Part shown: piece by piece, positions 1 through 17,297 of the stretch
Layout of the letters: each line of letters opens with the position of its first letter
Position numbering within the stretch: position 1 is the stretch's first letter
IMG/VR virus record: IMGVR_UViG_2534681674_000009
Strand: one strand, 5' to 3'
DNA from: a virus
Lineage: Duplodnaviria > Heunggongvirae > Uroviricota > Caudoviricetes
DNA: 24,457 nt
Notes under the pieces: generated by a model
What the model was told of the DNA's origin: nothing
The model's database searches: none
The model's input: only the letters and a program-made list of their open reading frames with translations
Translations under genes and position numbers: made by a program

Positions 1-1943
<1,943 letters not shown>

Positions 1944-1963
<20 letters not shown>

Positions 1964-3263
1964 TCTCCCGCATATTGCCAGCATGGCTTTTAATGAGCCG
2001 CTGATGCTTGAACCCGCCTATGCGCGGGTTTTCTTTTGTGCGCTTGCAGGCCAGCTTGGGATCAGCCGCCTGACGGATGCAGTATCCGGCGACAGCCTGA
2101 CTGCCGGAGAGGCACCCGCGGCGCTGGCGTTATCCGGTGATGATGACGGACCACGACAGGCCCGGAGTTATCAGGTCATGAACGGCATCGCCGTGCTGCC
2201 GGTGTCCGGTACGCTGGTCAGCCGGACGCGGGCGCTGCAGCCGTATTCGGGGATGACCGGTTACAACGGCATTATCGCCCGTCTGCAACAGGCTGCCAGC
2301 GACCCGATGGTGGACGGCATTCTGCTCGATATGGACACACCGGGCGGAATGGTGGCGGGAGCATTTGACTGTGCTGACATCATCGCCCGTGTGCGTGACA
2401 TAAAACCGGTATGGGCGCTGGCCAACGACATGAACTGCAGTGCAGGTCAGCTGCTTGCCAGCGCCGCCTCCCGGCGTCTGGTCACGCAGACCGCCCGGAC
2501 AGGCTCCATCGGCGTCATGATGGCTCACAGTAATTACGGTGCTGCCCTGGAGAAACAGGGCGTGGAAATCACGCTGATTTACAGCGGCAGCCATAAGGTG
2601 GATGGCAACCCCTACAGCCATCTACCGGGTGATGTCCGGGAAACACTGCAGTCCCGGATGGATGCAACCCGCCGGATGTTTGCGCAGAAGGTGTCGGCAT
2701 ATACCGGCCTGTCCGTGCAGGCTGTGCTGGATACCGAGGCTGCAGTGTACAGCGGTCAGGAGGCCATTGATGCCGGACTGGCTGATGAACTTGTCAACAG
2801 CACCGATGCGATCACCGTTATGCGTGATGCACTGGATGCACGTAAATCCCGTCTCTCAGGAGGGCGAATGACCAAAGAGACTCAATCAACAACTGTTTCA
2901 GCCACTGCTTCGCAGGCTGACGTTACTGGCGTGGTGCCAGCGATGGAGGGCGAAAACGCCAGCGCGGCGCAGCCGGACGTGAACGCGCAGATCACCGCTG
3001 CGGTTGCGGCAGAAAACAGCCGCATTATGGGGATCCTCAACTGTGAGGAGGCTCACGGACGCGAAGAACAGGCCCGCGTGCTGGCAGAAACCCCCGGTAT
3101 GACCGTGGAAACGGCCCGCCGCATTCTGGCCGCAGCACCACAGAGTGCACAGGCGCGCAGTGATACTGCGCTGGATCGTCTGATGCAGGGGGCACCGGCA
3201 CCGCTGGCTGCAGGTAACCCGGCATCTGATGCCGTTAACGATTTGCTGAACACACCAGTGTAA
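1944..3263 (+). CDS. C: Prohead protease / minor capsid protein gpC
   Basis: GTG start at 1944 after RBS GAGGAGGA (1931-1938); 439 aa beginning (V)TAELRNLPHIASMAFNEPLMLEPAYAR, as in lambda C; overlaps the end of B in another frame. Confidence 0.93.
2658..3263 (+). CDS. Nu3: Scaffolding protein Nu3 (in-frame internal start within C, shared stop)
   Basis: In-frame ATG at 2658 (MDATRRMFAQKVSAYTGLSVQ...) sharing the C stop, giving the 201-aa nested product known from lambda; start inferred by homology, not by a strong RBS. Confidence 0.65.
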   Translation: MDATRRMFAQKVSAYTGLSVQAVLDTEAAVYSGQEAIDAGLADELVNSTDAITVMRDALDARKSRLSGGRMTKETQSTTVSATASQADVTGVVPAMEGENASAAQPDVNAQITAAVAAENSRIMGILNCEEAHGREEQARVLAETPGMTVETARRILAAAPQSAQARSDTALDRLMQGAPAPLAAGNPASDAVNDLLNTPV

Positions 3264-3272
3264 GGGATGTTT

Positions 3273-3605
3273 ATGACGAGCAAAGAAACCTTTACCCATT
3301 ACCAGCCGCTGGGCAACAGTGACCCGGCTCATACCGCAACCGCGCCCGGCGGATTGAGTGCGAAAGCGTCTGCAATGACCCCGCTGATGCTGGACACCGC
3401 CACCCGTAAGCTGGTTGCGTGGGATGGCACCACCGACGGTGCTGCCGTTGGCATTCTTGCGGTTGCTGCTGACCAGACCAGCACCACGCTGACGTTCTAC
3501 AAGTCCGGCACGTTCCGTTATGAGGATGTGCTCTGGCCGGAGGCTGCCAGCGACGAGACGAAAAAACGGACCGCGTTTGCCGGAACGGCAATCAGCATCG
3601 TTTAA
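3273..3605 (+). CDS. D: Head decoration protein gpD
   Basis: [27 protein letters not shown]...[10 protein letters not shown], near-identical to recalled lambda D (110 aa); ATG at 3273 chosen over 3267 by RBS spacing and lambda N-terminus. Confidence 0.95.
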
Positions 3606-3623
3606 CCTGACCCTTCATCACTA

Positions 3624-3648
3624 GAGGCCGCCTGTGCGGTCTTTTTTT
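3624..3648 (+). terminator. Putative rho-independent terminator between D and E
   Basis: Stem GGCCGC / GCGGTC (one G.U pair) with CTGT loop, followed by a T7 run (3642-3648). Confidence 0.45.
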
Positions 3649-3661
3649 ACGGGATTTTTTT

Positions 3662-3937
3662 ATGTCGATGTACACAACCGCCCAGCTGCTGGCGGCAAAT
3701 GAGCAGAAATTTAAGTTTGATCCGCTGTTTCTGCGTCTCTTTTTCCGTGAGAGCTATCCCTTCACCACGGAGAAAGTCTATCTCTCACAAATTCCGGGAC
3801 TGGTAAACATGGCGCTGTACGTTTCGCCGATTGTTTCCGGTGAGGTTATCCGTTCCCGTGGCGGCTCCACCTCTGAATTTACGCCGGGATATGTCAAGCC
3901 GAAGCACTTAGCATGGCTTTCTGAGGCTTTCGTGTAG
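3662..3937 (+). pseudogene. E: Major capsid protein gpE, N-terminal fragment (interrupted after codon ~82 by the integrated element)
   Basis: MSMYTTAQLLAANEQKFKFDPLFLRLFFRESYPFTTEKVYLSQIPGLVNMALYVSPIVSGEVIRSRGGSTSEFTPGYVKPKH matches lambda E residues 1-82; after 3906 the frame reads 9 unrelated codons (LAWLSEAFV) and stops. Confidence 0.9.
3897..3906 (+). repeat. Left junction direct repeat (putative attL core) AGCCGAAGCA
   Basis: Identical 10-mer recurs at 16507-16516; phage-derived sequence ends here on the left and resumes there on the right. Confidence 0.65.
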
Positions 3938-4035
3938 TTGCTGGTTTTTACACTTAATCTTTTGATAATAAAGAATAAGTTTATCTGGTGCTTTCACTGA
4001 ATTTTCCTCGTTATCTGTGTGTTGCAATCATCTCT

Positions 4036-4055
4036 GTATTGCAGCTTGTATTGCT
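4036..4055 (+). repeat. Tandem GTATTGCAG / GTATTGC motifs (putative integrase arm-type sites, left arm)
   Basis: TGTATTGCAGCTTGTATTGC upstream of int; the same motif recurs in tandem at 16409-16432 near the right junction. Confidence 0.4.
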
Positions 4056-4231
4056 TTTTGGGGCTAAAAATGGCTGGCGAGAACAAACTGAGCGACAAAG
4101 CGCTTAAAGGATATCTGGGGAAACCCAGAGAAAAGCAGATCACCATTGCTGATGGAAAGGGGCTTTCTATTCGTGTGAGTACTAAAGGGTGAACCGCCCC
4201 GGGTTTCCTGGAGAGTATTTTATCTGTGAAC

Positions 4232-5122
4232 TCAGGCTGCCAGATCATTATTTCCGATGGAAGCATAATAAGCTTTTTCTGCTTCTGCCGGAGGAATATG
4301 GCCCAGCCTTTCCAGCAATCGTCGATTGTTATACCAGTCCACCCACGTTAGTGTGGCCAGTTCCACTTCTGTCCGGTTTTTCCAGCTATTACGGTGTATT
4401 ACCTCCGCTTTGTAAAGACCATTGATGCTCTCAGCCATCGCGTTGTCATACGAGTCGCCAGTACTCCCTGTTGATGCCAGTAATCCGGCTTCCTTAAGCC
4501 GCTGCGTGTAGGCCAGCGATACATACTGAGAACCTTTATCACTGTGATGGATTGTGCCGGACGGCCGACGGGCCCACAACGCCTGCTCCAGTGCATCCAG
4601 CACGAATGTTGTTTCCATGGATGATGAGACCTGCCATCCCACGATGTATCCGGCGAACACATCAATGATGAACGCCACATAAACGAAGCCCTGCCATGTG
4701 CTTACCCAGGTAAAATCAGCCACCCACAACTGGTCTGGACGTTCTGCCACGAACTGACGGTTTACGCGGTCGCATGCGGCAACGGCTTTCCGGCTGACGG
4801 TAGTGCGGACCTTTTTACCCCGGAGAACACCGGCAAGTCCCATAACTGCCATGAGACGTGCCACAGTGCATCTGGCCACTCTGATACCTTCCCGTAACAA
4901 CTGACGCCAGACTTTACGCACACCGTATACCTGGTGATTTTCATCGTATACGCGCTGTATCTCTTTCTTCAGCCAGTCATCGTGCTGCGCACGGGCACTG
5001 CGTTTATCCGGATGATGTCGCTGTTGCTGACAATGGTAATACGTTGACGGGGCAATATGCAGTTCGCTGCATACCGGTCCGACCCCGTACTGCTCACGCA
5101 GCTTATCCAGCAGTGGCATCAT
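4232..5122 (-). CDS. IS629-like transposase OrfB (DDE catalytic domain; normally made as OrfAB by frameshifting)
   Basis: [53 protein letters not shown]...[22 protein letters not shown]... matches recalled IS629/IS1203 OrfB. Confidence 0.9.
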
Positions 5123-5446
5123 TTTTCCAGAGGCGGTCGAACTCCGCCTTCGCAAAATAAGCGGAAGCCTGGCGAAGGATATCGTTACTGCGGCGCAGTT
5201 CACGATTTTCACGTTCCAGCTCTTTCAGACGCTGACGTTCAGCGCTGGTGAGCCCACCATCACCGCCCCCGGTATCCCGCTCATGCTGGCGAACCCAGAC
5301 ACGCAGAGTCTCCGGCGTACAGCCAATCTTTGGGGCAATGGAACTACGATTGCCGCCCACTGTGAGTCATATTCATCCTGACTTTCCAGAACCATACGAA
5401 TCGCCCGCTGACGGACTTCGGGGGAAAAACGAGTATTTTTAGTCAT
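5103..5446 (-). pseudogene. IS629-like OrfA, apparently frameshifted
   Basis: N-terminal [33 protein letters not shown] is in one frame (5225-5446) and the remainder [30 protein letters not shown]...[10 protein letters not shown] in another (5103-5360); junction near 5345-5350. Confidence 0.55.
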
Positions 5447-6620
5447 CCTGTTTACCTCTTTCTCAGGGAGTTTAGTCTCCAGGATTTCCGGGGCGGTTCA
5501 GGGGCTGTGAGCTTTGTTTTCTTCTACAGGTTAGCAGGTGGCCGGGCTGCTCCGGTCTGGCTAACGTTGGGTAAATATCCTGATATGTCACTCAAACAGG
5601 CAAGGGAAAAGCGCGACGAGTGCCGTGGTTGGTTGGCTGACAAACGTGATCCGCGTATCCAGATTAAGATTCAGGCTGAAGAACGCTTAAAGCCGGTTAC
5701 AGTGGAGGATGCACTAAATTACTGGTATGAAAATTACTGTAAGGTGCGTCGTAAAACTCATGCTGTAACGCTTGGCAGATTTCGAAAGCATATCTTTCCC
5801 TATATCGGTCATTTGCCCGTAAATGACACTCACCTATATGAATGGCTGGACTGTTTTGACCGAATTAAACGTAATGCACCAGTTATGGCGGCGTATGTTT
5901 TTTCTGACACTAAATTAGCTCTTCGTTTTTGTCGGGTACGCCAGTACGCGACGTGTGATGCTTTAAAGGATTTGCGCATGAGTGATGTGGGGCAGATTGC
6001 AGGTAAGCGGGATCGGGTTCTGGATGAAGCCGAACTCGGCCAGCTCTGGAAGGCAATTTTTGTCGAGCCTGATTTAAAACTAATGTCTGAATACACGCGA
6101 AAAATGTTTGTGCTTTGTACAGTATTTGGATGTCGAATGAGTGAAGCCCGATTATCAGAATGGAGCGAATGGAATCTCGAAAGTTGGGTTTGGACTGTAC
6201 CAAAAGATCACTCAAAAACTGGTGTTGAAATCGTCAGACCAGTACCTGAAATTCTACGACAGTGGGTAACGGATGTTCACGAAGAGACAAAACATACTGG
6301 TTATGTGCTGGGAAGTCTGCGAATTAGAGAAAGCGTAAGCAAGATTGGGGGGAAAATCGGTAAACGTTTGGGCCATGAAAAACAATGGTCACTACACGAC
6401 CTTAGAAGAACGCTATCTACTCATCTAAGTGATCTCGGTGTTGAATTTTATGTAGTAGAACAACTGTTAGGCCATGCGCTACCTGGCGTGGCAGGTGTTT
6501 ACAACCGGAGTAAGTTTATGGCTAAAAAACTGGATGCTCTGGAACTCTGGACTACATATCTCAATAGCATCGCAGGTGCTGATTCAAAAGTGACAATCCT
6601 CAAACAAAAGGTTGGTTAAC

Positions 6621-6848
6621 ATGAAAAAAATGGCAATTGTTGATAAAAAGGGTCTGGAGTACATTCCTAACATTGACCGAATGATCCGTGAGAAAGAATG
6701 TCGGGAGCTAACCACTCTTGCGAACAGCACACGCTGGAAGCTGGAGAAGGAAGGAAAATTTCCTAAGCGGATCAAGATTGGTTCCACTGCTGTTGCATAT
6801 CGTCTTTCAGAAGTGCAGGCATGGATTCGAGGTGAGTGGGTAGTTTAA
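6621..6848 (+). CDS. alpA: AlpA-like DNA-binding protein (putative excision/regulatory factor)
   Basis: Small basic ORF directly downstream of int with an HTH-like segment ECRELTTLANSTRWKLEKEGKFPKRIKIGSTAVAYRLSEVQAWI, typical of AlpA/Xis-like proteins next to P4-type integrases; ATG 6621 preferred over TTG 6612. Confidence 0.75.
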   Translation: MKKMAIVDKKGLEYIPNIDRMIREKECRELTTLANSTRWKLEKEGKFPKRIKIGSTAVAYRLSEVQAWIRGEWVV

Positions 6849-6874
6849 ATTATCTCAGAATAAAATATTATGAA

Positions 6875-6908
6875 TTACTGATTTGAGAATTTGTACTCAA
6901 ATCAGTAA
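6875..6908. terminator. Bidirectional hairpin between convergent genes
   Basis: Perfect 13-bp inverted repeat TTACTGATTTGAG ... CTCAAATCAGTAA with 8-nt loop, in an AT-rich spacer between the alpA-like (+) and membrane protein (-) genes. Confidence 0.55.
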
Positions 6909-6917
6909 TAACATTCT

Positions 6918-7454
6918 TTATAAGAGATTAAATCCAAATAAAGAGTAATCATATACCGGGGTGCATTGCATCCCACTGAATATGCTGATGTTTTTTTCTG
7001 TTTCTATCCTTTTTTCAATAAGTTGTTGTATATTTTTACAGTACAATTTGTGTGTGATGTTATTATCGTAAGCCTGATATAGCAACGTCAATGTTGATGC
7101 TATGAAACATGCAGAAAGAAAATGAACTAGTACATGTGAGCGTTTTTTGGTTGTCCATGATGCATTCGCTTGTGAAATATAAATCATTCTGAGAATGATA
7201 ATGATGATAGACAGTAACAGACCACTCAATAAAATAAGTATTGGGTTTGCGTATTTAATTAATGGTTGAGAGCAAAAAACTATTATAGCTCCTGTGACTG
7301 CGTATGAGAAAAAGGAGTAATTAAACTTCTTACTCCTTCTCTCAAGTATTTTAATTTCATCTTGTGTGGGGGTTTTAGATGCCTCTAATATAAGTTTATT
7401 AAATGTTTCTGTTATCTTGTTTTTTGTGTTTGTGGCTATTTTTTTTAGATTCAT
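6918..7454 (-). CDS. Hypothetical membrane protein (AT-rich accessory gene)
   Basis: 178-aa ORF with hydrophobic segments (YSFFSYAVTGAIIVFCSQPL, ILILLSGLLLSIIIIILRMIYI, VLVHFLSACFIASTLTLLY); base composition much more AT-rich than neighbours; no recognisable family. Confidence 0.55.
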   Translation of the reverse strand: MNLKKIATNTKNKITETFNKLILEASKTPTQDEIKILERRSKKFNYSFFSYAVTGAIIVFCSQPLIKYANPILILLSGLLLSIIIIILRMIYISQANASWTTKKRSHVLVHFLSACFIASTLTLLYQAYDNNITHKLYCKNIQQLIEKRIETEKNISIFSGMQCTPVYDYSLFGFNLL

Positions 7455-7804
7455 AGCATTCTAACTCCCTTAACTTATTTATTACTTTCTCTTTATGATA
7501 AGAGAGGGGAATGACTTGGTAAAGTGATTTGTCATTAATAATGATAATCCTTGCGATAAATATTTCTGCAAGTTATTTACCTGTTTGTTGCTATCTTGTT
7601 AAGCGTTGGGTGTGGTTTATGTTTGGAGCGACTTTATTTAATCGTGATTTTATGGATTTATATTTATATCCTGTAAGATAAGCGCATGTTAGTTCAGGAG
7701 TAGTGTCAGATAAAATTATTCGGAGTAGAACTACCTTTTCTGTTTATTGCCAGTATTTACATAGCAATGCGCCGTAGTTACTCACATCACGGCGCTGATA
7801 CTAA

Positions 7805-8110
7805 TTATTCAGATTCTTTGGCTTTACGCCGCTGGAGTTCTTCACGAGCGACGGCTACGAGTTGCCCGATTTCCTCCGCTGCCTTGATGCCGATTTGTTC
7901 GACCTTAGCTAAGGCATCCAGTGAAGACACGAGGGGATTTTCTCCGCTTCCTTCTGCCTGGCGGCGGGCGATTTCACCGCGCATGGCGGTTACGATAAAT
8001 CCGGCATTGCTTTCACCGTCCAGCTTAACGGATTCCATCCCTTGCATAACATCTAGTGGGACTCTGACAGTTGTCAGTTGTGATTTTGCGTTTTTGTTAG
8101 CCGTTGCCAT
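7805..8110 (-). CDS. Hypothetical protein, possible regulator (divergent from downstream operon)
   Basis: 101-aa ORF; sits head-to-head with the 8301+ operon across an intergenic region containing repeated operator-like half-sites. Confidence 0.5.
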   Translation of the reverse strand: MATANKNAKSQLTTVRVPLDVMQGMESVKLDGESNAGFIVTAMRGEIARRQAEGSGENPLVSSLDALAKVEQIGIKAAEEIGQLVAVAREELQRRKAKESE

Positions 8111-8300
8111 TTCTGAAACTCCTAATCATCGGTGTGTTTCAGTATACACAAAAAAAGAAATACAAAAAGCCTTGACGTGTGTTTCATGCGCTCATAACAT
8201 GAAACACACCGAAAGGATTGTTGAAATACAAAGAGCAACGCCCCGCAGTGCTGGGAACACATACGGGGCGTCTAACCAACAACGTAAACTAGGAGCCGTT
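8111..8300. promoter_or_regulatory. Divergent promoter/operator region
   Basis: TTGACG (8172-8177) then 17 bp then TAACAT (8195-8200); three copies of GTGTTTCA half-site (8133-8140 and 8179-8186 direct, 8200-8207 inverted), the latter two forming a palindrome over the -10; also inverted repeat GACGCCCCG...CGGGGCGTC at 8239-8273. Confidence 0.45.
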
Positions 8301-8498
8301 ATGGTTGCTGTAAATCATATACCACACCTTGTACACACACAAACGGCCTTTGTGTGGCGTTTTCTGGCACTGAGTGCCGGAGAATCTCAAATCATCCACG
8401 TAACCGCCTGGACGGAACGCGAAGCGCGTAGCCGTTGCCCGTCCGGTTGTGTTGCTGTATTCGCTGCAAAAATCCGCCAGGGAGTGAGTCATGCTTAA
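8301..8498 (+). CDS. Small hypothetical protein (possibly Icd-like)
   Basis: ATG at 8301 preceded by AGGAG (8291-8295); 65 aa MVAVNHIPHLVHTQTAFVWRFLALSAGESQIIHVTAWTEREARSRCPSGCVAVFAAKIRQGVSHA; family assignment is a weak recollection only. Confidence 0.45.
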   Translation: MVAVNHIPHLVHTQTAFVWRFLALSAGESQIIHVTAWTEREARSRCPSGCVAVFAAKIRQGVSHA

Positions 8499-8676
8499 AA
8501 CCTTCCGTGTATTTGCCCGAGCTGTTAACCCAATAGGCCACACAATTGGTATCGCTCAGAATGTGAAGGCTGTTAATGTTCAGACGGCTATTGCTGCGGT
8601 GAGAAGCGAATCATCAGAATATGGCTTATCACAAGTCATTATTTCAGCAGTGTATGAATTAAAAGAGGTGCATTAA
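8491..8676 (+). CDS. Small hypothetical protein
   Basis: 61-aa ORF whose start overlaps the preceding stop (translational coupling). Confidence 0.4.
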   Translation: MLKTFRVFARAVNPIGHTIGIAQNVKAVNVQTAIAAVRSESSEYGLSQVIISAVYELKEVH

Positions 8677-8834
8677 TGCAGGAAATCACATTACACGAAG
8701 CCGCTGAACGTGCGCACCAGACAGAAATTATTGCCGCCTTCTTGAGGTATACCCGAACAAAATTACAGATGCTGATATATCCGCACTGGCGAGCCTACTG
8801 GCGCGTCTTTCGGGAAGTGTCGCTAGTTTTTTGA
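8676..8834 (+). CDS. Small hypothetical protein (52 aa)
   Basis: ATG at 8676 overlapping the previous stop (TAATG), preceded by a strong RBS AGAGGTG (8664-8670); below the ORF-track length cutoff. Confidence 0.4.
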   Translation: MQEITLHEAAERAHQTEIIAAFLRYTRTKLQMLIYPHWRAYWRVFREVSLVF

Positions 8835-8866
8835 TTGAGGAAGAAAGTAAGCTGGTGGGGGATTAA

Positions 8867-9088
8867 ATGAATACAGAACGGGAAGTCTTTTTTAAATTGT
8901 TAGCATGTGCAGAAAGTTCATTAACTTTAAATAATTCAGCAAAAGCAATATTAAATATGTGGCTTGATTGCATAAATGACAATGAAGATGCAAATATTGC
9001 TTATGGCCTGTTGTCACTTATTGATGAAGCAGCAGAAAAACTCAATGACGCAATAAATAGTGCCCTGCTATCAAATAAGTCGAGTTAA
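8867..9088 (+). CDS. Small hypothetical protein (AT-rich)
   Basis: 73-aa ORF with GGGGGA RBS upstream; no recognisable family. Confidence 0.4.
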   Translation: MNTEREVFFKLLACAESSLTLNNSAKAILNMWLDCINDNEDANIAYGLLSLIDEAAEKLNDAINSALLSNKSS

Positions 9089-9105
9089 GTCGAGGAATAA
9101 ATAAT

Positions 9106-9405
9106 ATGGAAATGAAAAATTCTGGCTTTATTGCCAGCGGCCCCGCTCGGCCTGAATTTATGAACGGCGATATTTACCGCGATAAATACGGCGGCACGGT
9201 AACGATTAAAGGCGTGGCAGAACGGCGCATCACTTACCGTCGTGAGGGGTATAGCTATGACTGCGTGATGCCTGTTTATCAGTTCCGGCGTGATTTTTCC
9301 CTGGTATATGCCGCACCCCGCAGTAAGCCCATCAGCAGGGAAAAAGCGCGGGGAAACATCCAGAAAATGAAAAGCATGATTAACGCATTCAGGGGCAAAA
9401 AATGA
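9106..9405 (+). CDS. Hypothetical protein upstream of primase
   Basis: 99-aa ORF with GAGGA RBS; stop overlaps the primase start (ATGA). Confidence 0.5.
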   Translation: MEMKNSGFIASGPARPEFMNGDIYRDKYGGTVTIKGVAERRITYRREGYSYDCVMPVYQFRRDFSLVYAAPRSKPISREKARGNIQKMKSMINAFRGKK

Positions 9406-11153
9406 AACTGGCACCGAACTTAAAAAAACAGCCACGCGACAGACTGACAGAGATAATCATCTTTGCAGGTAGTGATGCGTGGAGCCATGCGAAAGAGTGG
9501 CAGGAATGGGCGGGTAAACATATTGCCGCCGACGATGTGCCGCCTGTCGTGTTGGCTGATGAGCAACTGAAAAACATCACCGATTACCGGATCATTGATG
9601 AAGATCGTCAGTGTGTGCGTGTTTACCGCGCAGGACATATCACAGAGCACAGCATGACGCAGATTGTTACGTTACTGGCTGTGGCTGGAGTGAAGACCGT
9701 ACACGAATACGCGGGGATTACTGACACCAGCCCAGTGGATTTATCCGACCAGTTGCCGCGACTCAAAGAGGAATGCGAGCGTGGGGAAAGCCTGGTGCTT
9801 AATCTTCCGACGAAGCAAAAGGCGCAACTTTCACAGATGGCAGACAGTGAGCGCGCGCAGCTGCTTGCCGAGCGCTTTGATGGCGTTTGTGTGCATCCGG
9901 AAAGTGAAATCGTTCACGTATGGCGCGGCGGGGTATGGTGTCCGATCAGCACAATGGAGCTGAGCCGCGAAATGGTGGCGATCTATTCAGAGCACAGGGC
10001 CACTTTCAGCAAACGCGTGATCAATAACGCCGTTGAAGCGTTAAAAGTTATTGCCGAACCAATGGGCGAGCCGTCCGGCGATTTGCTGCCGTTCGCCAAT
10101 GGTGCGCTTGACCTGAAAACGGGGGAATTTTCCCCGCACACGCCGGAGAACTGGATCACCACGCACAACGGCATTGAGTACACGCCACCAGCACCAGGGG
10201 AGAACATCCGCGATAACGCGCCAAACTTTCATAAATGGCTTGAGCACGCAGCCGGAAAAGACCCGCGCAAGATGATGCGTATATGTGCCGCGCTGTACAT
10301 GATTATGGCGAACCGGTACGACTGGCAGATGTTCATTGAGGCCACCGGAGACGGGGGAAGCGGTAAGAGTACATTTACCCATATTGCCACCCTGCTTGCT
10401 GGCAAACAGAACACCGTAAGCGCAGAGATGACATCACTCGATGATGCAGGAGGGCGTGCGCAGGTTGTCGGGAGTCGTCTTATCGTCCTTGCCGATCAGC
10501 CGAAATATACGGGGGAAGGCACGGGCATCAAGAAAATCACGGGAGGCGATCCCGTTGAAATTAACCCGAAATATGAGAAGCGATTCACGACGATAATAAG
10601 GGCGGTGGTACTGGCAACCAATAACGACCCGATGATCTTTACCGAACGGGCCGGAGGTGTGTCACGCCGTCGGGTGATTTTCCGGTTCGACAACATTGTA
10701 AGGGAGGACGAAAAAGACAAGGAATTACCGGAAAAGATAGCGGCAGAAATCCCCGTAATTATCCGCCGCTTGCTGGCTAATTTTGCTGACCCTGAAAAGG
10801 CACGGGCTTTATTACTGGAACAGCGTGACGGTGATGAAGCTCTGGCAATAAAGCAGCAAACGGATCCGGTTGTTGAGCTTTGCGCGGCGCTGGAGTTTCT
10901 GGAGGAAGCTCGTGGGCTAATGATGGGCGGTGGTGGTGACACCGTGAAGTACACGACCAGAAACAGCCTTTACCGTGTCTATATGGCCTTCATGGCATAT
11001 ACAGGAAAGGGGAAATGTTTGAGCGTGAATGAGTTCGGAAAGGCTATGAGGTCAGCGGCGAAAGTTTACGGATATGAATATATTACGCGAAAAGTTAAGG
11101 GAGTCACGCAGACCAACGCAACGACTACTGATGATTGCGATGCGTTTTTATAA
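9402..11153 (+). CDS. Primase-helicase, D5 / P4-alpha C-terminal-like (SF3 NTPase)
   Basis: 583-aa ORF with Walker A GDGGSGKST and Walker B-like hydrophobic run ending in D (RLIVLADQ); architecture resembles satellite/P4 replication initiators; immediately followed by iterons. Confidence 0.8.
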   Translation: MKLAPNLKKQPRDRLTEIIIFAGSDAWSHAKEWQEWAGKHIAADDVPPVVLADEQLKNITDYRIIDEDRQCVRVYRAGHITEHSMTQIVTLLAVAGVKTVHEYAGITDTSPVDLSDQLPRLKEECERGESLVLNLPTKQKAQLSQMADSERAQLLAERFDGVCVHPESEIVHVWRGGVWCPISTMELSREMVAIYSEHRATFSKRVINNAVEALKVIAEPMGEPSGDLLPFANGALDLKTGEFSPHTPENWITTHNGIEYTPPAPGENIRDNAPNFHKWLEHAAGKDPRKMMRICAALYMIMANRYDWQMFIEATGDGGSGKSTFTHIATLLAGKQNTVSAEMTSLDDAGGRAQVVGSRLIVLADQPKYTGEGTGIKKITGGDPVEINPKYEKRFTTIIRAVVLATNNDPMIFTERAGGVSRRRVIFRFDNIVREDEKDKELPEKIAAEIPVIIRRLLANFADPEKARALLLEQRDGDEALAIKQQTDPVVELCAALEFLEEARGLMMGGGGDTVKYTTRNSLYRVYMAFMAYTGKGKCLSVNEFGKAMRSAAKVYGYEYITRKVKGVTQTNATTTDDCDAFL

Positions 11154-11164
11154 AAAATGGCAAT

Positions 11165-11400
11165 GGTTATCTACCTTGTCTACCTGACTGAAATAAAATA
11201 CTTTTATTTCAATGTATTAATGCAGGTAGATAACTATTTTTCACTGTCTACCTGTTATCTACCTTATCTACCCATTTTTGTAGACAGGTAAGGAGACGGG
11301 TAGAGATGAGGTAGACAGCTATTTGGGGCTGTCTACCTCCCTGAAACCCGCGCCATTACTGGCCTGATAACTAATCAGGTAGACAAGGTAGACAAGGTGG
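11165..11400. repeat. Iteron cluster (putative origin of replication)
   Basis: At least ten copies of (T/G)TCTACC / GGTAGAC in both orientations (e.g. 11168-11185, 11247-11273, 11280-11318, 11331-11337, 11377-11397) around an AT-rich block (11190-11222), directly downstream of the primase gene. Confidence 0.7.
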
Positions 11401-11442
11401 TGGTGCACAAAAAACTTTTTAAACGAGGGGGTAAAAATAAAA

Positions 11443-11685
11443 ATGCACACATCAGGAAAACTGAACAAACATATAAAGCCACATTACCGCGCCCTTGATA
11501 TGGCTGAACACTGGCTAAGGGTGGCGATTAAGGCAATAGACCGCAACGCCGGGGAAGGATACGCGAAAGCACATCCCGAACTGATAAGCGCATTCATGAC
11601 AACGGCGGCTGCAAACTTTGCCACGCTGACCGAACGGGAGATTGCCGAAGCGGAGGAAGTGACAACCATCAATATTAAGTCCTGA
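11443..11685 (+). CDS. Hypothetical protein
   Basis: 80-aa ORF with GAGGGGG RBS upstream. Confidence 0.45.
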   Translation: MHTSGKLNKHIKPHYRALDMAEHWLRVAIKAIDRNAGEGYAKAHPELISAFMTTAAANFATLTEREIAEAEEVTTINIKS

Positions 11686-11696
11686 GAGCAGGCAGC

Positions 11697-12146
11697 ATGA
11701 CGGCGCAAATAGCAGCTTACGGGCGGCTGGTGGACGACCCACAGGTAAAACATACCAGCAAGGGAACACCCATGACACTGGCACGGATGGCGGTATCTTT
11801 GCCATGCAGCCAGGCAGATGACGGAACGGCGACGATGTGGTTATCTGTGCTGGCGTTTGGCAGACAAGCCGACACGCTGGCAAAGCATCACAAAGGCGAA
11901 CTCCTGAGCGTGGCGGGTAATATGCAGGTGAGCCAGTGGACTGGACAGAACGGTGAAACGCGGCAGGGCTGGCAGGTTATCGCAGACAGCGTAATCAGTG
12001 CGCGAACGGTGCGACCGGGCGGCAAAAAAGATCAACAGGGTCAGGCTACTGACGCACTGAACAGAGCAAAACAACAGGCAGATCAGCAAGGAAGCCATCC
12101 ACCAGTGGGAGATAATGAGCAATGGGGAGATGATATTCCGTTTTAA
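11697..12146 (+). CDS. ssb: Single-stranded DNA-binding protein
   Basis: 149 aa with OB-fold-like N-terminal part, Gly/Gln-rich linker and acidic C-terminal tip ending DDIPF, the hallmark SSB tail. Confidence 0.8.
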   Translation: MTAQIAAYGRLVDDPQVKHTSKGTPMTLARMAVSLPCSQADDGTATMWLSVLAFGRQADTLAKHHKGELLSVAGNMQVSQWTGQNGETRQGWQVIADSVISARTVRPGGKKDQQGQATDALNRAKQQADQQGSHPPVGDNEQWGDDIPF

Positions 12147-12163
12147 ATATTGCCAATAAAAAA

Positions 12164-12190
12164 GGCCGGAAAAAAAAATAAATTTTCCGG
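12164..12190. terminator. Hairpin after ssb (possible terminator)
   Basis: CCGGAAAA ... TTTTCCGG stem with A-rich loop; A/T-rich on both sides. Confidence 0.35.
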
Positions 12191-12365
12191 CATGCTACAT
12201 AAATCCAGACCAAAGGGAGTGAAGATATTAACACTAATTATCCGTGCTGAAGTTGTCATCCCAAAACTTTATACAACATTGCACTCGGTTGCATGTATTC
12301 GCATGACAAATATCGGTGATAGCATATATCCACAATTATTTTTAATGAATGCAAAGAGGATGCGT

Positions 12366-13406
12366 ATGGTTGATTTATATTCGCCTACCCAGCTTGTACA
12401 GGTGGTTAATGCTGTAGATGTACAAAAACAACTAAATGCGTTGTTTACCAGTTTGTTTTTTACTCGCTCGGTAATGTTTGAATCGCGCGATATTATTCTT
12501 GATACAATCGACGATCCAAATATCCCAATTGCAGCGTTTTGTTCTCCTATGGTGGGTAGTAAAGTTTCACGTGACGAAGGGTACGAATCAAAAACAATTC
12601 GTCCAGGCTATATGAAGCCGAAAAGCAGCATTGATCCAAATAAGTTAGCTGTGCGCCCTGCTGGTGTATCACCTGAGCAATACAATGCTTTTGGAGCGCG
12701 TAATATTAAAGTTAAACAGGCGATTGTAAATCAGGCTAAAGCTATTCGTGCACGTATTGAATGGCTTGCCGTTCAGGCAATCACAACGGGGAAAAATATC
12801 ATTGAGGGCGATGGTATTGAACGTTATGAGCTGGACTGGAATATTAAACCACAAAATATCATCACTCAGTCTGGCGGTGCTGAGTGGTCAGGTAAGGATA
12901 AAGAAACTTTTGATCCAAATGATGATATTGAGAGCTACGCAGAATTTAGTGAGGGCGTCACTAATATCATCATTATGGGCGGTAATGTATGGAAGAAATA
13001 CCGTTCATTCAGAGCGATAAAAGAGGCTCTGGATACCCGTCGTGGTTCTAATTCCGAACTGGAAACGGCCCTTAAAGACCTTGGTGATTCGGTGAGTTTT
13101 AAAGGGTATATGGGCGATGTTGCGATTGTTGTATACAGCGGGCGTTATACCGACGAGGACGGAACTGAAAAACATTTCCTTGATCCTGATTTGATGGTGC
13201 TTGGCAATACGGCTCTTCAGGGGATTGTCGCCTATGGCGGTATTCAGGATCCGGAGCTAATCCGAATGGGGCTGACTAAAGCCGAACTTGCACCGAAAAA
13301 CTATATTGTGCCTGGTGATCCGGCTATTGAATATGTGCAGACACATTCAGCACCACAGCCAATACCGGCCCGCATCAATCGTTTTGTTACCGTTCGCATT
13401 GGCTAA
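12366..13406 (+). CDS. Major capsid protein, lambda gpE homologue encoded by the element
   Basis: Start at ATG 12366 (RBS AAGAGG 12354-12359). Product aligns along its length with lambda E, e.g. ITQSGGAEWSGKDKETFDPNDDIESYA...RRGSNSELETALKDLGDSVSFKGYMGDVAIVVYSG vs lambda ITQSGGTEWSKRDKSTYDPTDDIEAYA...RRGSNSELETAVKDLGKAVSYKGMYGDVAIVVYSG; clearly a diverged paralogue, not a duplicate. Confidence 0.85.
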   Translation: MVDLYSPTQLVQVVNAVDVQKQLNALFTSLFFTRSVMFESRDIILDTIDDPNIPIAAFCSPMVGSKVSRDEGYESKTIRPGYMKPKSSIDPNKLAVRPAGVSPEQYNAFGARNIKVKQAIVNQAKAIRARIEWLAVQAITTGKNIIEGDGIERYELDWNIKPQNIITQSGGAEWSGKDKETFDPNDDIESYAEFSEGVTNIIIMGGNVWKKYRSFRAIKEALDTRRGSNSELETALKDLGDSVSFKGYMGDVAIVVYSGRYTDEDGTEKHFLDPDLMVLGNTALQGIVAYGGIQDPELIRMGLTKAELAPKNYIVPGDPAIEYVQTHSAPQPIPARINRFVTVRIG

Positions 13407-13415
13407 GGGGGAGCA

Positions 13416-13757
13416 ATGGCTACTCATTACACTGAACTCATGTCTGGCACTGAAGCACTGGTTACTACGCTGGGGATATTTTCAGCCAATAAAGGGGTAA
13501 TACCTGCGTTTACGCCACTGATGCAGGAAGATGCAACTGGTGCGCTAGTGGTATGGGATGGAACGAGCGCAGGCAAAGCGGTTTATGTTTCCGCTGTACA
13601 AATCGACACAGCGAAAAAAACACAGGCACAGGTTTATAAGACAGGTGTTTTAAATGTTGATGCTCTGAACTGGCCTGAGTCTGTAAGAGAACTGTCGGCA
13701 AAGGTTGCCGCGTTTGTTGGCTCAGGTATTTCTGTTCAGCCGCTGGCTCGTGTGTAA
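13416..13757 (+). CDS. Head decoration protein, lambda gpD homologue encoded by the element
   Basis: 113 aa; ...LVVWDGTSAGKAVYVSAVQ...YKTGVLNVDALNWPE...AAFVGSGISV parallels lambda D ...[19 protein letters not shown]...[15 protein letters not shown]...[11 protein letters not shown]; RBS AAGGGGGA. Confidence 0.8.
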   Translation: MATHYTELMSGTEALVTTLGIFSANKGVIPAFTPLMQEDATGALVVWDGTSAGKAVYVSAVQIDTAKKTQAQVYKTGVLNVDALNWPESVRELSAKVAAFVGSGISVQPLARV

Positions 13758-13768
13758 AGGGGGATACA

Positions 13769-14152
13769 ATGCAGAATGATTACAATGACCTTAAGCCAAT
13801 TGCCGAAATGATGTACCCGAATCCAGCTGTAGAGGAATTAAAAGCTATCGCTGACAAAATGTGTTTAAGCGAGCGCCTTGTTGATATGAATCAGGTGATG
13901 GAAATTACAACCCTGAGTCGGCGTACACTGCTAAACCTTGAGGCTAGTGGAGAGTTCCCGGAGCGTGTGCAGGTTACGGAAGGGCGTAAGGCCTGGTATT
14001 TAAGTGAAGTGATCGACTGGATAAATAATATTCCTCGCGCTTCTGAATATTGCCGCGTACCTGTCCCAAAAAAGCCAGATGCGGCGCTATGCCTCAAGAT
14101 TGAGCGTGTACGCCGCAATGCACGGGATGGTCGCTATAAGCTGATTGGTTGA
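13769..14152 (+). CDS. Second AlpA-like HTH protein
   Basis: 127 aa; segment MNQVMEITTLSRRTLLNLEASGEFPERVQVTEGRKAWYLSEVIDWINN resembles AlpA/MerR-type HTH; RBS AAGGGGGA. Confidence 0.6.
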   Translation: MQNDYNDLKPIAEMMYPNPAVEELKAIADKMCLSERLVDMNQVMEITTLSRRTLLNLEASGEFPERVQVTEGRKAWYLSEVIDWINNIPRASEYCRVPVPKKPDAALCLKIERVRRNARDGRYKLIG

Positions 14153-14194
14153 TGAAATTAGGGCCCGCTCTGGCTGGCGGGTCCTTTCCGGCGA

Positions 14195-14340
14195 TCTGAC
14201 AGGCTACGGGGCGTCAGGCGCGCGGGTTTTCTCTATTTATGAGCATTTTAAGGGGACTGGTGGTGGTTTTGTTGTTCGCTATATCTGTATGAATAATAAG
14301 AGAAAAATACAATCAATACACCAACCTGAAACAGTAATTA
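14195..14340 (+). other. cos site (cosN plus cosB-like region) of the element
   Basis: GACAGGCTACGGGGCGTCAGGCGCGCGGGTTTTCTCTATTTATGAGCATTTT closely parallels recalled lambda cos GACAGGTTACGGGGCGGCGACCTCGCGGGTTTTCGCTATTTATGAAAATTTT; lies directly upstream of a Nu1-like gene as in lambda. Confidence 0.65.
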
Positions 14341-14353
14341 AGTTGTGGTATCA

Positions 14354-14896
14354 ATGAAATTACACCTGATGAACAAAAAAAACATGGCAAAAAGTTGCCG
14401 TGTAAGCGCCACTGCGTTCGATAAGTGGGGAGTGATTCCCGTCGAGCGTAAGGGCCGTGAGGCGTTCTATGATGTTGCCAGTGTAATAGATAATCGGGTT
14501 AACAATGCAATCAGCCAGATTACAAACGAAACGGGCGATATTGATGACGATGAACTTTTACGCGTCAGGATCAGATTACTGACAGCACAGGCAGAGGCGC
14601 AGGAGCTTAAAAACGAGCGCGAACGCGGCGACGTTATTGATACAGAGTTTTGTATGTATGTTCTTTCCAAACTGGCGAGTCAGATTTCATCTATCATGGA
14701 CAGCCTGCCGCTTACCATGCAAAGGCGCTTCCCACAGATGACTCCGGCTATGCTGGATGGACTTAAAAAGGAAGTGGCTAAAGCCTGTAATGCCAGTGCC
14801 GGCGTTGCTGACAACCTCCCACAGATACTGGCTGATTATCTGATGGAAAGTACAGGAAACGTACCGGATAAGTTGCAGCTGAATAAGGATAAGTAA
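14354..14896 (+). CDS. Terminase small subunit, lambda Nu1-like
   Basis: ...RLLTAQAEAQELKNERERGDVIDTEFCMYVLSKLASQISSIMDSLPLTMQRRFP matches lambda Nu1 ...RLTRAQADAQELKNARDSAEVVETAFCTFVLSRIAGEIASILDGLPLSVQRRFP; start codon uncertain (ATG 14354, 14369 or 14384). Confidence 0.8.
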   Translation: MKLHLMNKKNMAKSCRVSATAFDKWGVIPVERKGREAFYDVASVIDNRVNNAISQITNETGDIDDDELLRVRIRLLTAQAEAQELKNERERGDVIDTEFCMYVLSKLASQISSIMDSLPLTMQRRFPQMTPAMLDGLKKEVAKACNASAGVADNLPQILADYLMESTGNVPDKLQLNKDK

Positions 14897-14907
14897 CGTA
14901 GTACGCT

Positions 14908-15183
14908 ATGACTGAATCCGAACTACTGAAAGTAATCTGCTATGCTGGTGGAGTCAGCCACCAGCATGACGAACAGGCCACGCAGCCGGGCAGTGTCACC
15001 GCTGAAAATTACGCTCGTGTGGTTGCTGAGGTTATGTGGCGTGACGGTATAGAACTGAACGGACAGGATTGCTTAGTCATCCGCACCAAAGTGCTGGCTA
15101 TACTGGCAGCTAGGCGGAGGCAGGGACAACGCCAGAACGTTGCATCGTACCAGTGGAAGAAGCCTGACAGACTGCGGCGATAA
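14908..15183 (+). CDS. Hypothetical protein downstream of terS
   Basis: 91-aa ORF; no recognisable family; weak RBS. Confidence 0.35.
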   Translation: MTESELLKVICYAGGVSHQHDEQATQPGSVTAENYARVVAEVMWRDGIELNGQDCLVIRTKVLAILAARRRQGQRQNVASYQWKKPDRLRR

Positions 15184-15337
15184 CTCTTTGATTTTCTCGA
15201 CGGCCCCAAAATGGGCCTTACCATAGCCAGCTAATAAATGAGCAAGCCTCAAAAGTGAGGTTTGTGGCCGTTTGGCCTATTCATATGCTAACTCGTTGAT
15301 ATTCCTGACGACGCAAATTTACGCCTTGTGGCTGGTA

Positions 15338-15363
15338 GTCGAATTGCAAATTTGCAACTCGAC
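15338..15363. promoter_or_regulatory. 26-bp near-perfect palindrome (putative operator)
   Basis: GTCGAATTGCAAATTTGCAACTCGAC, self-complementary except one position pair; intergenic between the terS module and the Abi-like gene. Confidence 0.35.
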
Positions 15364-15585
15364 TATGAAACTACAGGTAGTTTGGGTAGTAAAAGCAACA
15401 CACTGATTTTGGGGCTTCTTCGCGATACCTAATATTATGGTATCGGTGGAAGAGATATCGTTTCTCATAGGTTAGCACCGAGGGCGGAGTTCCGCCCTCA
15501 TCGAAAAATTGCTTACGAGTCGTCAAAATAAATTAATCGACTGAGTATAATGATTAACTAATTGCTCGTGTTACTTCATTATACG

Positions 15586-16347
15586 TTATTTCCCATCTTT
15601 AAGGTTTAACCAAGTGTTAATTAAAAAAAGAGCCATTGAGCCTGATAAATTTACTGCAAGTTCGGCATGCCTTGGGGATGGCTTAATTGATGAGCTGTTC
15701 GTTCCATGTGCATCACCGAGTTTATTACGAAGAGTACCTAACCCATTTACAACTGCAGAACAACCGCCGAGAATTTGTTTGAAGATATTTTCAGTATGTT
15801 GGTCGGCAGATAGGTTAAGTTCTTTTGAAAGAGTTTTATAAAGCTCTGACATTTCAATATTTTTATTATTATACTGAATGCCCATATCATCAAGAATGTG
15901 TTTGCAAACTGTTTCAAGAAGTGTTCTTGCGGAGGTTATCGCACCATCCGGATCTGTATGGCGCCGTTCAAGTGCTTTTATCCAAACGGCGTGGACTCCA
16001 TCCTCGTTAAACTTTCTTAATACATCAGATATGTCTTCATCCGCTGGAGCTTTATTTTTCCCTTCTAGATAGTCCAGCATCGGCTGAAATGCCTTATAAA
16101 TCAAATCTCTCCGGGGGGCATACTTTTCAGTCTTTTTTATAAATCCCCAAAATTCTTTTAGTGAGCGATTAGTTCTCACAAACTCTGGTAATAGCTGATG
16201 TAAAGGAGGATTTTGTAAGAAATATGTTCTTAGAAGCAAATAATCATTATTAGCTTCATCCTGGGCTCCTGTAGCTCTTGCAATTAGTATGTTTTGAAGC
16301 GCTACTGCGCGCTCTAGGTCATTTTGAAGGGTATCTATAATATTCAT
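15586..16347 (-). CDS. Abi-like protein with HEPN-type Rx4-6H motif (putative abortive-infection / defence effector)
   Basis: 253-aa ORF on the opposite strand at the element's right end; C-terminal LGTLRNKLGDAHG contains R-x6-H as in HEPN/Abi_C family proteins. Confidence 0.55.
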   Translation of the reverse strand: MNIIDTLQNDLERAVALQNILIARATGAQDEANNDYLLLRTYFLQNPPLHQLLPEFVRTNRSLKEFWGFIKKTEKYAPRRDLIYKAFQPMLDYLEGKNKAPADEDISDVLRKFNEDGVHAVWIKALERRHTDPDGAITSARTLLETVCKHILDDMGIQYNNKNIEMSELYKTLSKELNLSADQHTENIFKQILGGCSAVVNGLGTLRNKLGDAHGTNSSSIKPSPRHAELAVNLSGSMALFLINTWLNLKDGK

Positions 16348-16408
16348 AACAAATCTTTATTCACTTCATTTGTGGGTTGATAATTGAATGGTTTGTACAT
16401 TGATTTCT

Positions 16409-16432
16409 GTGTATTGCAGTGTGTATTGCAGC
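16409..16432 (+). repeat. Tandem GTGTATTGCAG repeats (putative integrase arm-type sites, right arm)
   Basis: GTGTATTGCAGTGTGTATTGCAGC, same motif as at 4036-4055. Confidence 0.4.
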
Positions 16433-16506
16433 ATAGCCATTCAGGTAAAGATTATGCTCTATTTTTCCTCTTATATCATTCACATACTTACACCATTGAC
16501 TCATGT

Positions 16507-16516
16507 AGCCGAAGCA
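16507..16516 (+). repeat. Right junction direct repeat (putative attR core) AGCCGAAGCA
   Basis: Identical to 3897-3906; downstream sequence TGAGGTGAATCCGCAGATGACC continues lambda E. Confidence 0.65.
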
Positions 16517-17297
16517 TGAGGTGAATCCGCAGATGACCCTGCGTCGCCTGCCGGATGAAGATCCGCAGAATCTGGCGGACCCGGCTTACCGCCGCCGTCG
16601 CATCATCATGCAGAACATGCGTGACGAAGAGCTGGCCATTGCCCAGGTCGAAGAGATGCAGGCAGTTTCTGCCGTGCTTAAGGGCAAATACACCATGACC
16701 GGTGAAGCCTTTGATCCGGTTGAGGTGGATATGGGCCGCAGTGCGGCAAACAACATCACACAGTCCGGTGGCACGGAGTGGAGCAAGCGTGACAAGTCCA
16801 CGTATGACCCGACCGACGATATCGAAGCCTACGCGCTGAACGCCAGCGGCGTGGTGAATATCATCGTGTTTGATCCGAAAGGATGGGCGCTGTTCCGTTC
16901 CTTCAAAGCCGTCAGGGATAAGCTGGATACCCGTCGCGGCTCTCATTCCGAGCTGGAGACAGCGGTAAAAGACCTGGGCAAAGCGGTGTCTTATAAGGGA
17001 ATGTATGGCGATGTGGCCATCGTCGTGTATTCCGGACAGTACGTGGAAAACGGCGTCAAAAAGAACTTCCTGCCGGACAACACGATGGTGCTGGGGAACA
17101 CTCAGGCACGCGGTCTGCGTACCTATGGCTGTATTCAGGATGCGGACGCACAGCGCGAAGGCATTAACGCCTCTGCCCGTTACCCGAAAAACTGGGTGAC
17201 TACCGGCGATCCGGCGCGAGAGTTCACCATGATTCAGTCAGCACCGCTGATGCTGCTGGCTGACCCTGATGAGTTCGTGTCCGTACAACTGGCGTAA
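16507..17297 (+). pseudogene. E: Major capsid protein gpE, C-terminal fragment (codons ~80-341)
   Basis: (PKH)EVNPQMTLRRLPDEDPQNLADPAYRRRRIIMQNMRDEELAIAQVEEMQAV...EFTMIQSAPLMLLADPDEFVSVQLA, near-identical to lambda E from residue ~83; no in-frame ATG, upstream in-frame TAG at 16506-16508. Confidence 0.9.

Follow-up and report, generated by a model that had tools for sequence, protein, structure and literature searches.

The stretch of DNA analysed here (24,457 nucleotides, referred to as the window) contains a PICI satellite embedded in its helper, a lambdoid prophage whose head and tail genes occupy positions 1-3906 and the sequence from 16507 onward. The satellite begins with a tyrosine integrase gene that is disrupted by an insertion sequence (IS), followed by genes for an HTH protein, an Icd-like protein, a P4-type primase and SSB, and continues with a lambda-E-like capsid gene, a D-like decoration gene, AlpA, the small terminase TerS and a 91-aa ORF. 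The last gene of the satellite, and the only one on the opposite strand at that end, encodes a protein of the Abi_C/HEPN family (the Abi gene and Abi protein in what follows); it is convergent with the late operon of the helper and of the satellite. The coordinates of these features are collected in Table 1.

Table 1. Location of the satellite, its attachment sites and the Abi_C/HEPN cargo in the window.
Feature	Position	Strand	Remarks
Helper major capsid gene E, 5' fragment	3662..3906	+	Pfam Phage_cap_E profile positions 1-78
attL core, 10 bp	3897..3906		AGCCGAAGCA
Helper-embedded PICI satellite	about 3907-16516	+	11capE type; within the lambda-E-like capsid gene of the lambdoid helper prophage
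IS3-family element, 1311 bp	4190-5500		about 120 nt into the integrase gene; 3-bp target duplication
IS transposase	4232-5212	-	
ALIL frameshift pseudoknot in the IS	5048-5163	-	
Near-perfect palindrome/hairpin, 30 bp	15336..15365		left boundary of the insertion site; hairpin counterpart in L002
Cargo cassette, 1004 bp	15373..16376		GC 38% vs 45-47% for the satellite
Abi_C/HEPN gene	15586..16347	-	ORF with ATG start, 253 aa; PF14355 match; PGAP name
C-terminal HEPN module, aa ~100-250	15598..16050	-	
Pfam Abi_C match, aa 168-243	15619-15846	-	
Catalytic-type HEPN motif R207-N208-K-L-G-D-A-H214	15706..15729	-	invariant R, N, H
N-terminal domain, aa 1-98	16054..16347	-	helical bundle, conserved; function uncharacterised
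attR arm of the satellite, conserved	16377..16506		holds doubled TGTGTATTGCAG (x2) at 16408-16431
attR core, 10-bp identity block	16507..16516		AGCCGAAGCA; matches the 10-bp block of 11capE
Helper major capsid gene E, 3' fragment	16507..17297	+	100% identical to the Stx1a phage capsid gene

The 11capE type of helper-embedded PICI (HE-PICI) was described by Tommasini, Mageeney and Williams in 2023 (PMC10111431), and the satellite in the window is like it in its capsid-gene integration site, its 10-bp block, the doubled TGTATTGC motif and the gene order. Integration at the site E:Phage_cap_E was indicated by the split capsid gene, whose 5' fragment PGAP calls a 'major capsid protein' pseudogene, by 10-bp blocks at both ends and by doubled motifs at the reported distances. 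The latter were found at 4035-4054 and 16410-16429 (chance expectation, 0.03 matches), the first about 132 bp beyond the attL core centre and the second about 80 bp ahead of the attR core centre; the published positions of the doubled TGTATTGC motif in HE-PICIs are about 132 bp downstream and about 81 bp upstream of the attP centre (PMC10111431). In the attR arm, this motif is thought to bind integrase or AlpA. Two things set the window copy apart from the 11capE description. In that paper no Abi or other defence cargo is discussed (the words 'abortive' and 'HEPN' occur 0 times; PMC10111431), and the IS3-family insertion in the integrase goes beyond what was described, so that the window copy lacks a functional HE-PICI-clade integrase. 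The satellite has an E-like capsid gene and a D-like decoration gene of its own at 12150-13757, while the E gene of the helper is split; with the integrase broken, they may be the sole pair of E/D type left intact downstream of the split. The satellite capsid gene was listed as a 418-aa ORF starting from TTG, and PGAP predicts 346 aa in sister loci.

Neither the embedding of the satellite in the helper capsid gene nor the IS in the integrase had been mentioned in the initial annotation. None of the 5426 complete E. coli genomes searched contained the IS-integrase junction, and the integrase was intact in three related satellites (L001, L003 and L013). Because the integrase is broken, the satellite in the window is probably unable to excise and locked in place, and the capsid gene of the helper would then be permanently split. 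The Abi gene in the window was intact and identical to the copies found in satellites with intact integrases.

The opposite-strand 253-aa ORF with an HEPN motif was present exactly as the initial annotation had claimed, and profile searches, motif conservation and the predicted fold agreed with the Abi_C-type HEPN identity proposed there. The search against Abi_C/HEPN profiles suggested in that annotation gave a Pfam match to Abi_C (PF14355) of 83.3 bits, well over the gathering score of 24 (E=1.3e-23), and the C-terminal part of the PADLOC AbiJ profile matched the Abi protein at E=2e-21. An identical protein, WP_001021158.1, is named 'abortive infection family protein' in the PGAP annotation. 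The peptide LGTLRNKLGDAHG corresponds to residues 203-215 and bears the catalytic-type motif, in which the codons for R207 (15727-15729) and H214 (15706-15708) give the R-x6-H (RNx5H) spacing. In an alignment of 34 homologous sequences, R207, N208 and H214 were invariant, as were R128, R129, D132, T138, R141, E145 and K149 in the first HEPN helix and several residues of the N-terminal domain, and the RNx5H motif was found in 255 of the 269 homologues collected. The predicted fold was that of an all-alpha HEPN protein, with low confidence in the active-site loop (model pLDDT <50 at residues 213-215).

A search of a collection of 5.8 billion proteins recovered 5746 homologues, many of them with 58-86% identity over 96-100% of the length, the named best matches coming from Klebsiella, Pectobacterium, Pantoea, Enterobacter and Serratia; an exhaustive search yielded 3440 clusters at 50% identity. 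The Abi_C/HEPN match and these numbers of homologues are far beyond chance, showing that the Abi gene is an intact two-domain member of a widespread family. Searches of solved structures with full-length and N-terminal profiles returned chance-level matches only, and nothing in NCBIfam scored above threshold (STM4504/CBY_0614 reached 17 bits, the cut-off being 150). By analogy with characterised members, the residues of the motif would confer RNase activity, and the N-terminal bundle presumably has a role in sensing or regulation.

One of two relatives that have been studied is SadR of S. aureus, a 266-aa Abi_C protein with the motif RNEYGDAH (Nat Commun 2026, PMC13590631). SadR cuts ssRNA as well as total RNA, runs as an apparent dimer and, when expressed alone, blocks phages and plasmid uptake; both the RNase activity and the defence are lost in the R225A, N226A and H232A mutants (PMC13590631). 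Judging from its published description, SadR and the Abi protein are both the products of single genes (266 and 253 aa, respectively) with a C-terminal Abi_C/HEPN module, an unmatched N-terminal domain and carriage on a mobile element, and the R-N-x5-H spacing is common to both (RNKLGDAH in the Abi protein). In contrast, SadR belongs to another phylum and is carried by SCCmec or the rlmH locus instead of a PICI. The N-terminal domains of the two proteins probably differ as well, because Firmicute Abi_C proteins aligned to the Abi protein only from about aa 104 on. Abi_C proteins with no recognisable N-terminal domain make up the majority class in the SadR paper (PMC13590631).

The other is lactococcal AbiJ, a classical abortive-infection protein that phages escape through mutations in an ssDNA-annealing protein (PMC13064643). 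AbiJ (Abi-859 of Lactococcus lactis; PADLOC PDLC02347) is an abortive-infection system of one gene which, like the Abi gene, stands alone and is carried by a mobile element, and its HEPN module is homologous and has the same RNx5H motif, with 26% identity over 112 aa (aa 130-241 of the Abi protein) in BLASTP (E=5e-11). The N-terminal halves of the two proteins are unrelated: the Abi protein covers only positions 162-274 of the 281 positions of the PADLOC AbiJ profile, whereas a true lactococcal AbiJ (L014) spans positions 1-281 (E=9e-126), and the AbiJ_NTD Pfam domain had no match in the Abi protein at E<=1. We therefore rejected a strict AbiJ identity, the similarity being confined to the HEPN half. 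HepS, from the Gifsy-1 prophage, consists of one HEPN protein; it recognises the tail tips of siphoviruses and cuts tRNAs in the anticodon loop (Nature 2026, PMC13043305). It appeared as a structural neighbour of the predicted model of the Abi protein and may serve as a useful working model; its architecture is different, and no sequence similarity between the two was detectable.

Comparison with other satellites defined the limits of the cargo. The satellite of strain FDAARGOS_1296 (L002) is collinear with that of the window, homology being lost at 15062 and regained at 16377. In a finer comparison, the hairpin element at 15330-15372 corresponded to positions 13402-13444 of L002, where it adjoins the att arm, and consequently the Abi gene sits in a clean 1004-bp insertion relative to that strain. 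The breakpoints fall at 15372/15373 and 16376/16377, the flanks being joined directly in L002, and the cassette comprises the Abi gene with 213 bp downstream and 29 bp upstream of it. The attR core lies 160 bp upstream of the Abi ATG, in agreement with the earlier placement of the gene at the right end of the satellite. In E. coli 95-3322 (L013) the right-end slot holds, instead of the Abi_C gene, a gene for a 252-aa DUF2971 protein (12993-13751, minus strand) with a match to PDC-S31, a candidate defence system in PADLOC. The cargo status proposed initially was thus corroborated both by the absence of the cassette and by its replacement, and the slot behaves like an exchangeable accessory position of which the Abi gene is one occupant. 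Likewise, the view of satellite ends as defence hotspots accords with the report of the Penadés laboratory that immune systems can be located at either end (5' or 3') of PICIs (PMC11364771). The palindrome bordering the insertion site on the left may act as a terminator or bind a protein at the end of the late operon of the satellite. A GC-rich hairpin was also observed at 15481-15500, 85 nt beyond the stop codon of the Abi gene, with no U-tract on either strand.

The junction between the Abi gene and the capsid fragment was present in 41 of the 5426 complete E. coli genomes. Homologues of Klebsiella and Enterobacter, with 70% and 68% identity, occupy an equivalent place in PICIs and capsid-forming-PICI-like elements, where they are the last gene, in opposite orientation, next to the att site at fis. 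Other locations of homologues were chromosomal islands, in one case with a SIR2-type gene as neighbour, and plasmids from many phyla. The closest homologue from outside E. coli (86% identity; L016:4888-7762, named Klebsiella pneumoniae in the source) lies 70 bp downstream of a co-oriented gene for a protein of about 672-680 aa that carries no annotated function, and adjoins a SIR2_2 protein. This locus resembles a defence island, possibly with a two-gene arrangement there.

Another accessory slot on the opposite strand was noticed near the integrase end of the satellite. At 6918-7454 (minus strand; GC 31%) it holds a gene for a 178-aa protein with no family match and with several hydrophobic stretches that could span the membrane; the equivalent slot of L001 and L003 contains an AbiC/AbiP-like 'putative phage abortive infection protein'. 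The 178-aa protein is a candidate for a second defence cargo.

A scan for promoters upstream of the Abi gene gave no more sites than shuffled sequence, and the one weak sigma-70-like site, at 16479..16451 (minus strand), was no better than those of shuffled sequence. For the same gene we found no convincing Shine-Dalgarno sequence and no canonical terminator. Given that only 29 bp of the cassette precede the ATG, we infer that the Abi promoter is localised in the attR arm. The shortness of this upstream part also implies that any cargo placed in the slot would have to use the conserved arm for its transcription.

The initial suggestion that the gene could act as an addiction-like module found no support in the surroundings of the Abi gene. 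The remark that no partner ORF is obvious held across loci, since no neighbour of the Abi gene was common to the window and any of the homologue loci examined. No minimal nucleotidyltransferase (MNT) ORF flanks the gene, as would be expected of a HEPN-MNT pair; no RNA repeats of the kind found in type III toxin-antitoxin (TA) systems (AbiV/ToxIN-like) were seen near it beyond the 2 x 12-nt motif of the att arm, and an Rfam search gave no match near it. A 47-aa ORF at 16361-16504 (minus strand), ending 13 nt before the Abi ATG, was rejected as an antitoxin because it overlaps the att arm, which is conserved even when the Abi gene is missing, and because it has no counterpart in the homologue loci; it is probably spurious. 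The Abi gene is best read as a single-gene system.

It would be conceivable that the Abi protein is the toxin of a TA module that stabilises the satellite, or the composite of helper and satellite, and has no part in phage defence. HEPN proteins are frequent toxins, AbiV being one that is paired with an RNA antitoxin, and the location of the gene on a mobile element would suit such a role. We regard this as improbable, because neither an antitoxin gene, MNT or other, nor a tandem-repeat RNA was found next to the Abi gene, because the neighbours are wholly different from one homologue locus to another and the upstream ORF overlaps the conserved att arm, and because SadR works alone and is tolerated when expressed alone.

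Slightly less probable still is a function directed at the helper, in which the Abi protein would be an interference or regulatory factor, for instance an RNase trimming late transcripts to favour packaging of the satellite. The satellite is embedded in the late operon of the helper and the gene is convergent with late transcription, so that its expression could be linked to induction. However, some satellites that are equivalent in other respects lack the gene or carry another in its place, so that it has no core function in the life cycle, and close homologues are also known from chromosomal islands, next to SIR2-type genes and not on satellites, in a family spread over plasmids and many phyla. 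An inactive or decaying passenger with no current function, as might be imagined from the damaged integrase of the satellite and the lack of a clear promoter, is the most doubtful reading of all, because the ORF is full-length, its product is identical to the protein of genomes with intact integrases, and every invariant residue of the family is retained.

The family, motif, fold and cargo position together support the interpretation of the Abi gene as a defence cargo, and an anti-phage role is suggested by analogy with SadR and AbiJ. We consider it likely, with a probability of about 0.7, that the gene encodes a stand-alone HEPN RNase that is triggered by phage and aborts infection, carried on an exchangeable PICI cassette. 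According to this model, the Abi protein would be made constitutively from a promoter in the attR arm and would homo-oligomerise, two RNx5H motifs forming a composite RNase site. It would stay inactive until a component or an activity of a phage is sensed, probably through the N-terminal domain; once activated, it would cleave cellular and/or phage RNA, and infection would be halted before the release of progeny. The RNase activity, its RNA target, the trigger and the abortive outcome are proposed here from what is known of the relatives. Such a cassette would shield the host, the satellite and the helper prophage against competing phages. On the other hand, killing the cells that support lambdoid growth could clash with the need of the satellite for a lambdoid helper.

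A way around this conflict would exist if expression of the defence gene were wired to the state of integration. The cargo could be on while the satellite is integrated, and it could be switched off or silenced by antisense when helper late transcription reads through and Int or AlpA load on the arm. We judge such a link to the integration state or to helper induction to be possible but unlikely, and we hold in equally low esteem the separate idea that the N-terminal bundle is a new sensor domain defining a subfamily of Abi_C. If true, integration-wired expression would provide a built-in means of sparing the helper.

The type of element, the protein family and the presence of defence cargo at PICI ends have all been published already, and the Abi gene does not represent a new kind of system, as it is named by routine annotation and has characterised relatives. 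[quoted passage not shown] The Abi gene is therefore a handy candidate for asking how a HEPN abortive protein spares the lambdoid helper that its carrier needs, and is also convenient for asking what the conserved N-terminal domain senses.
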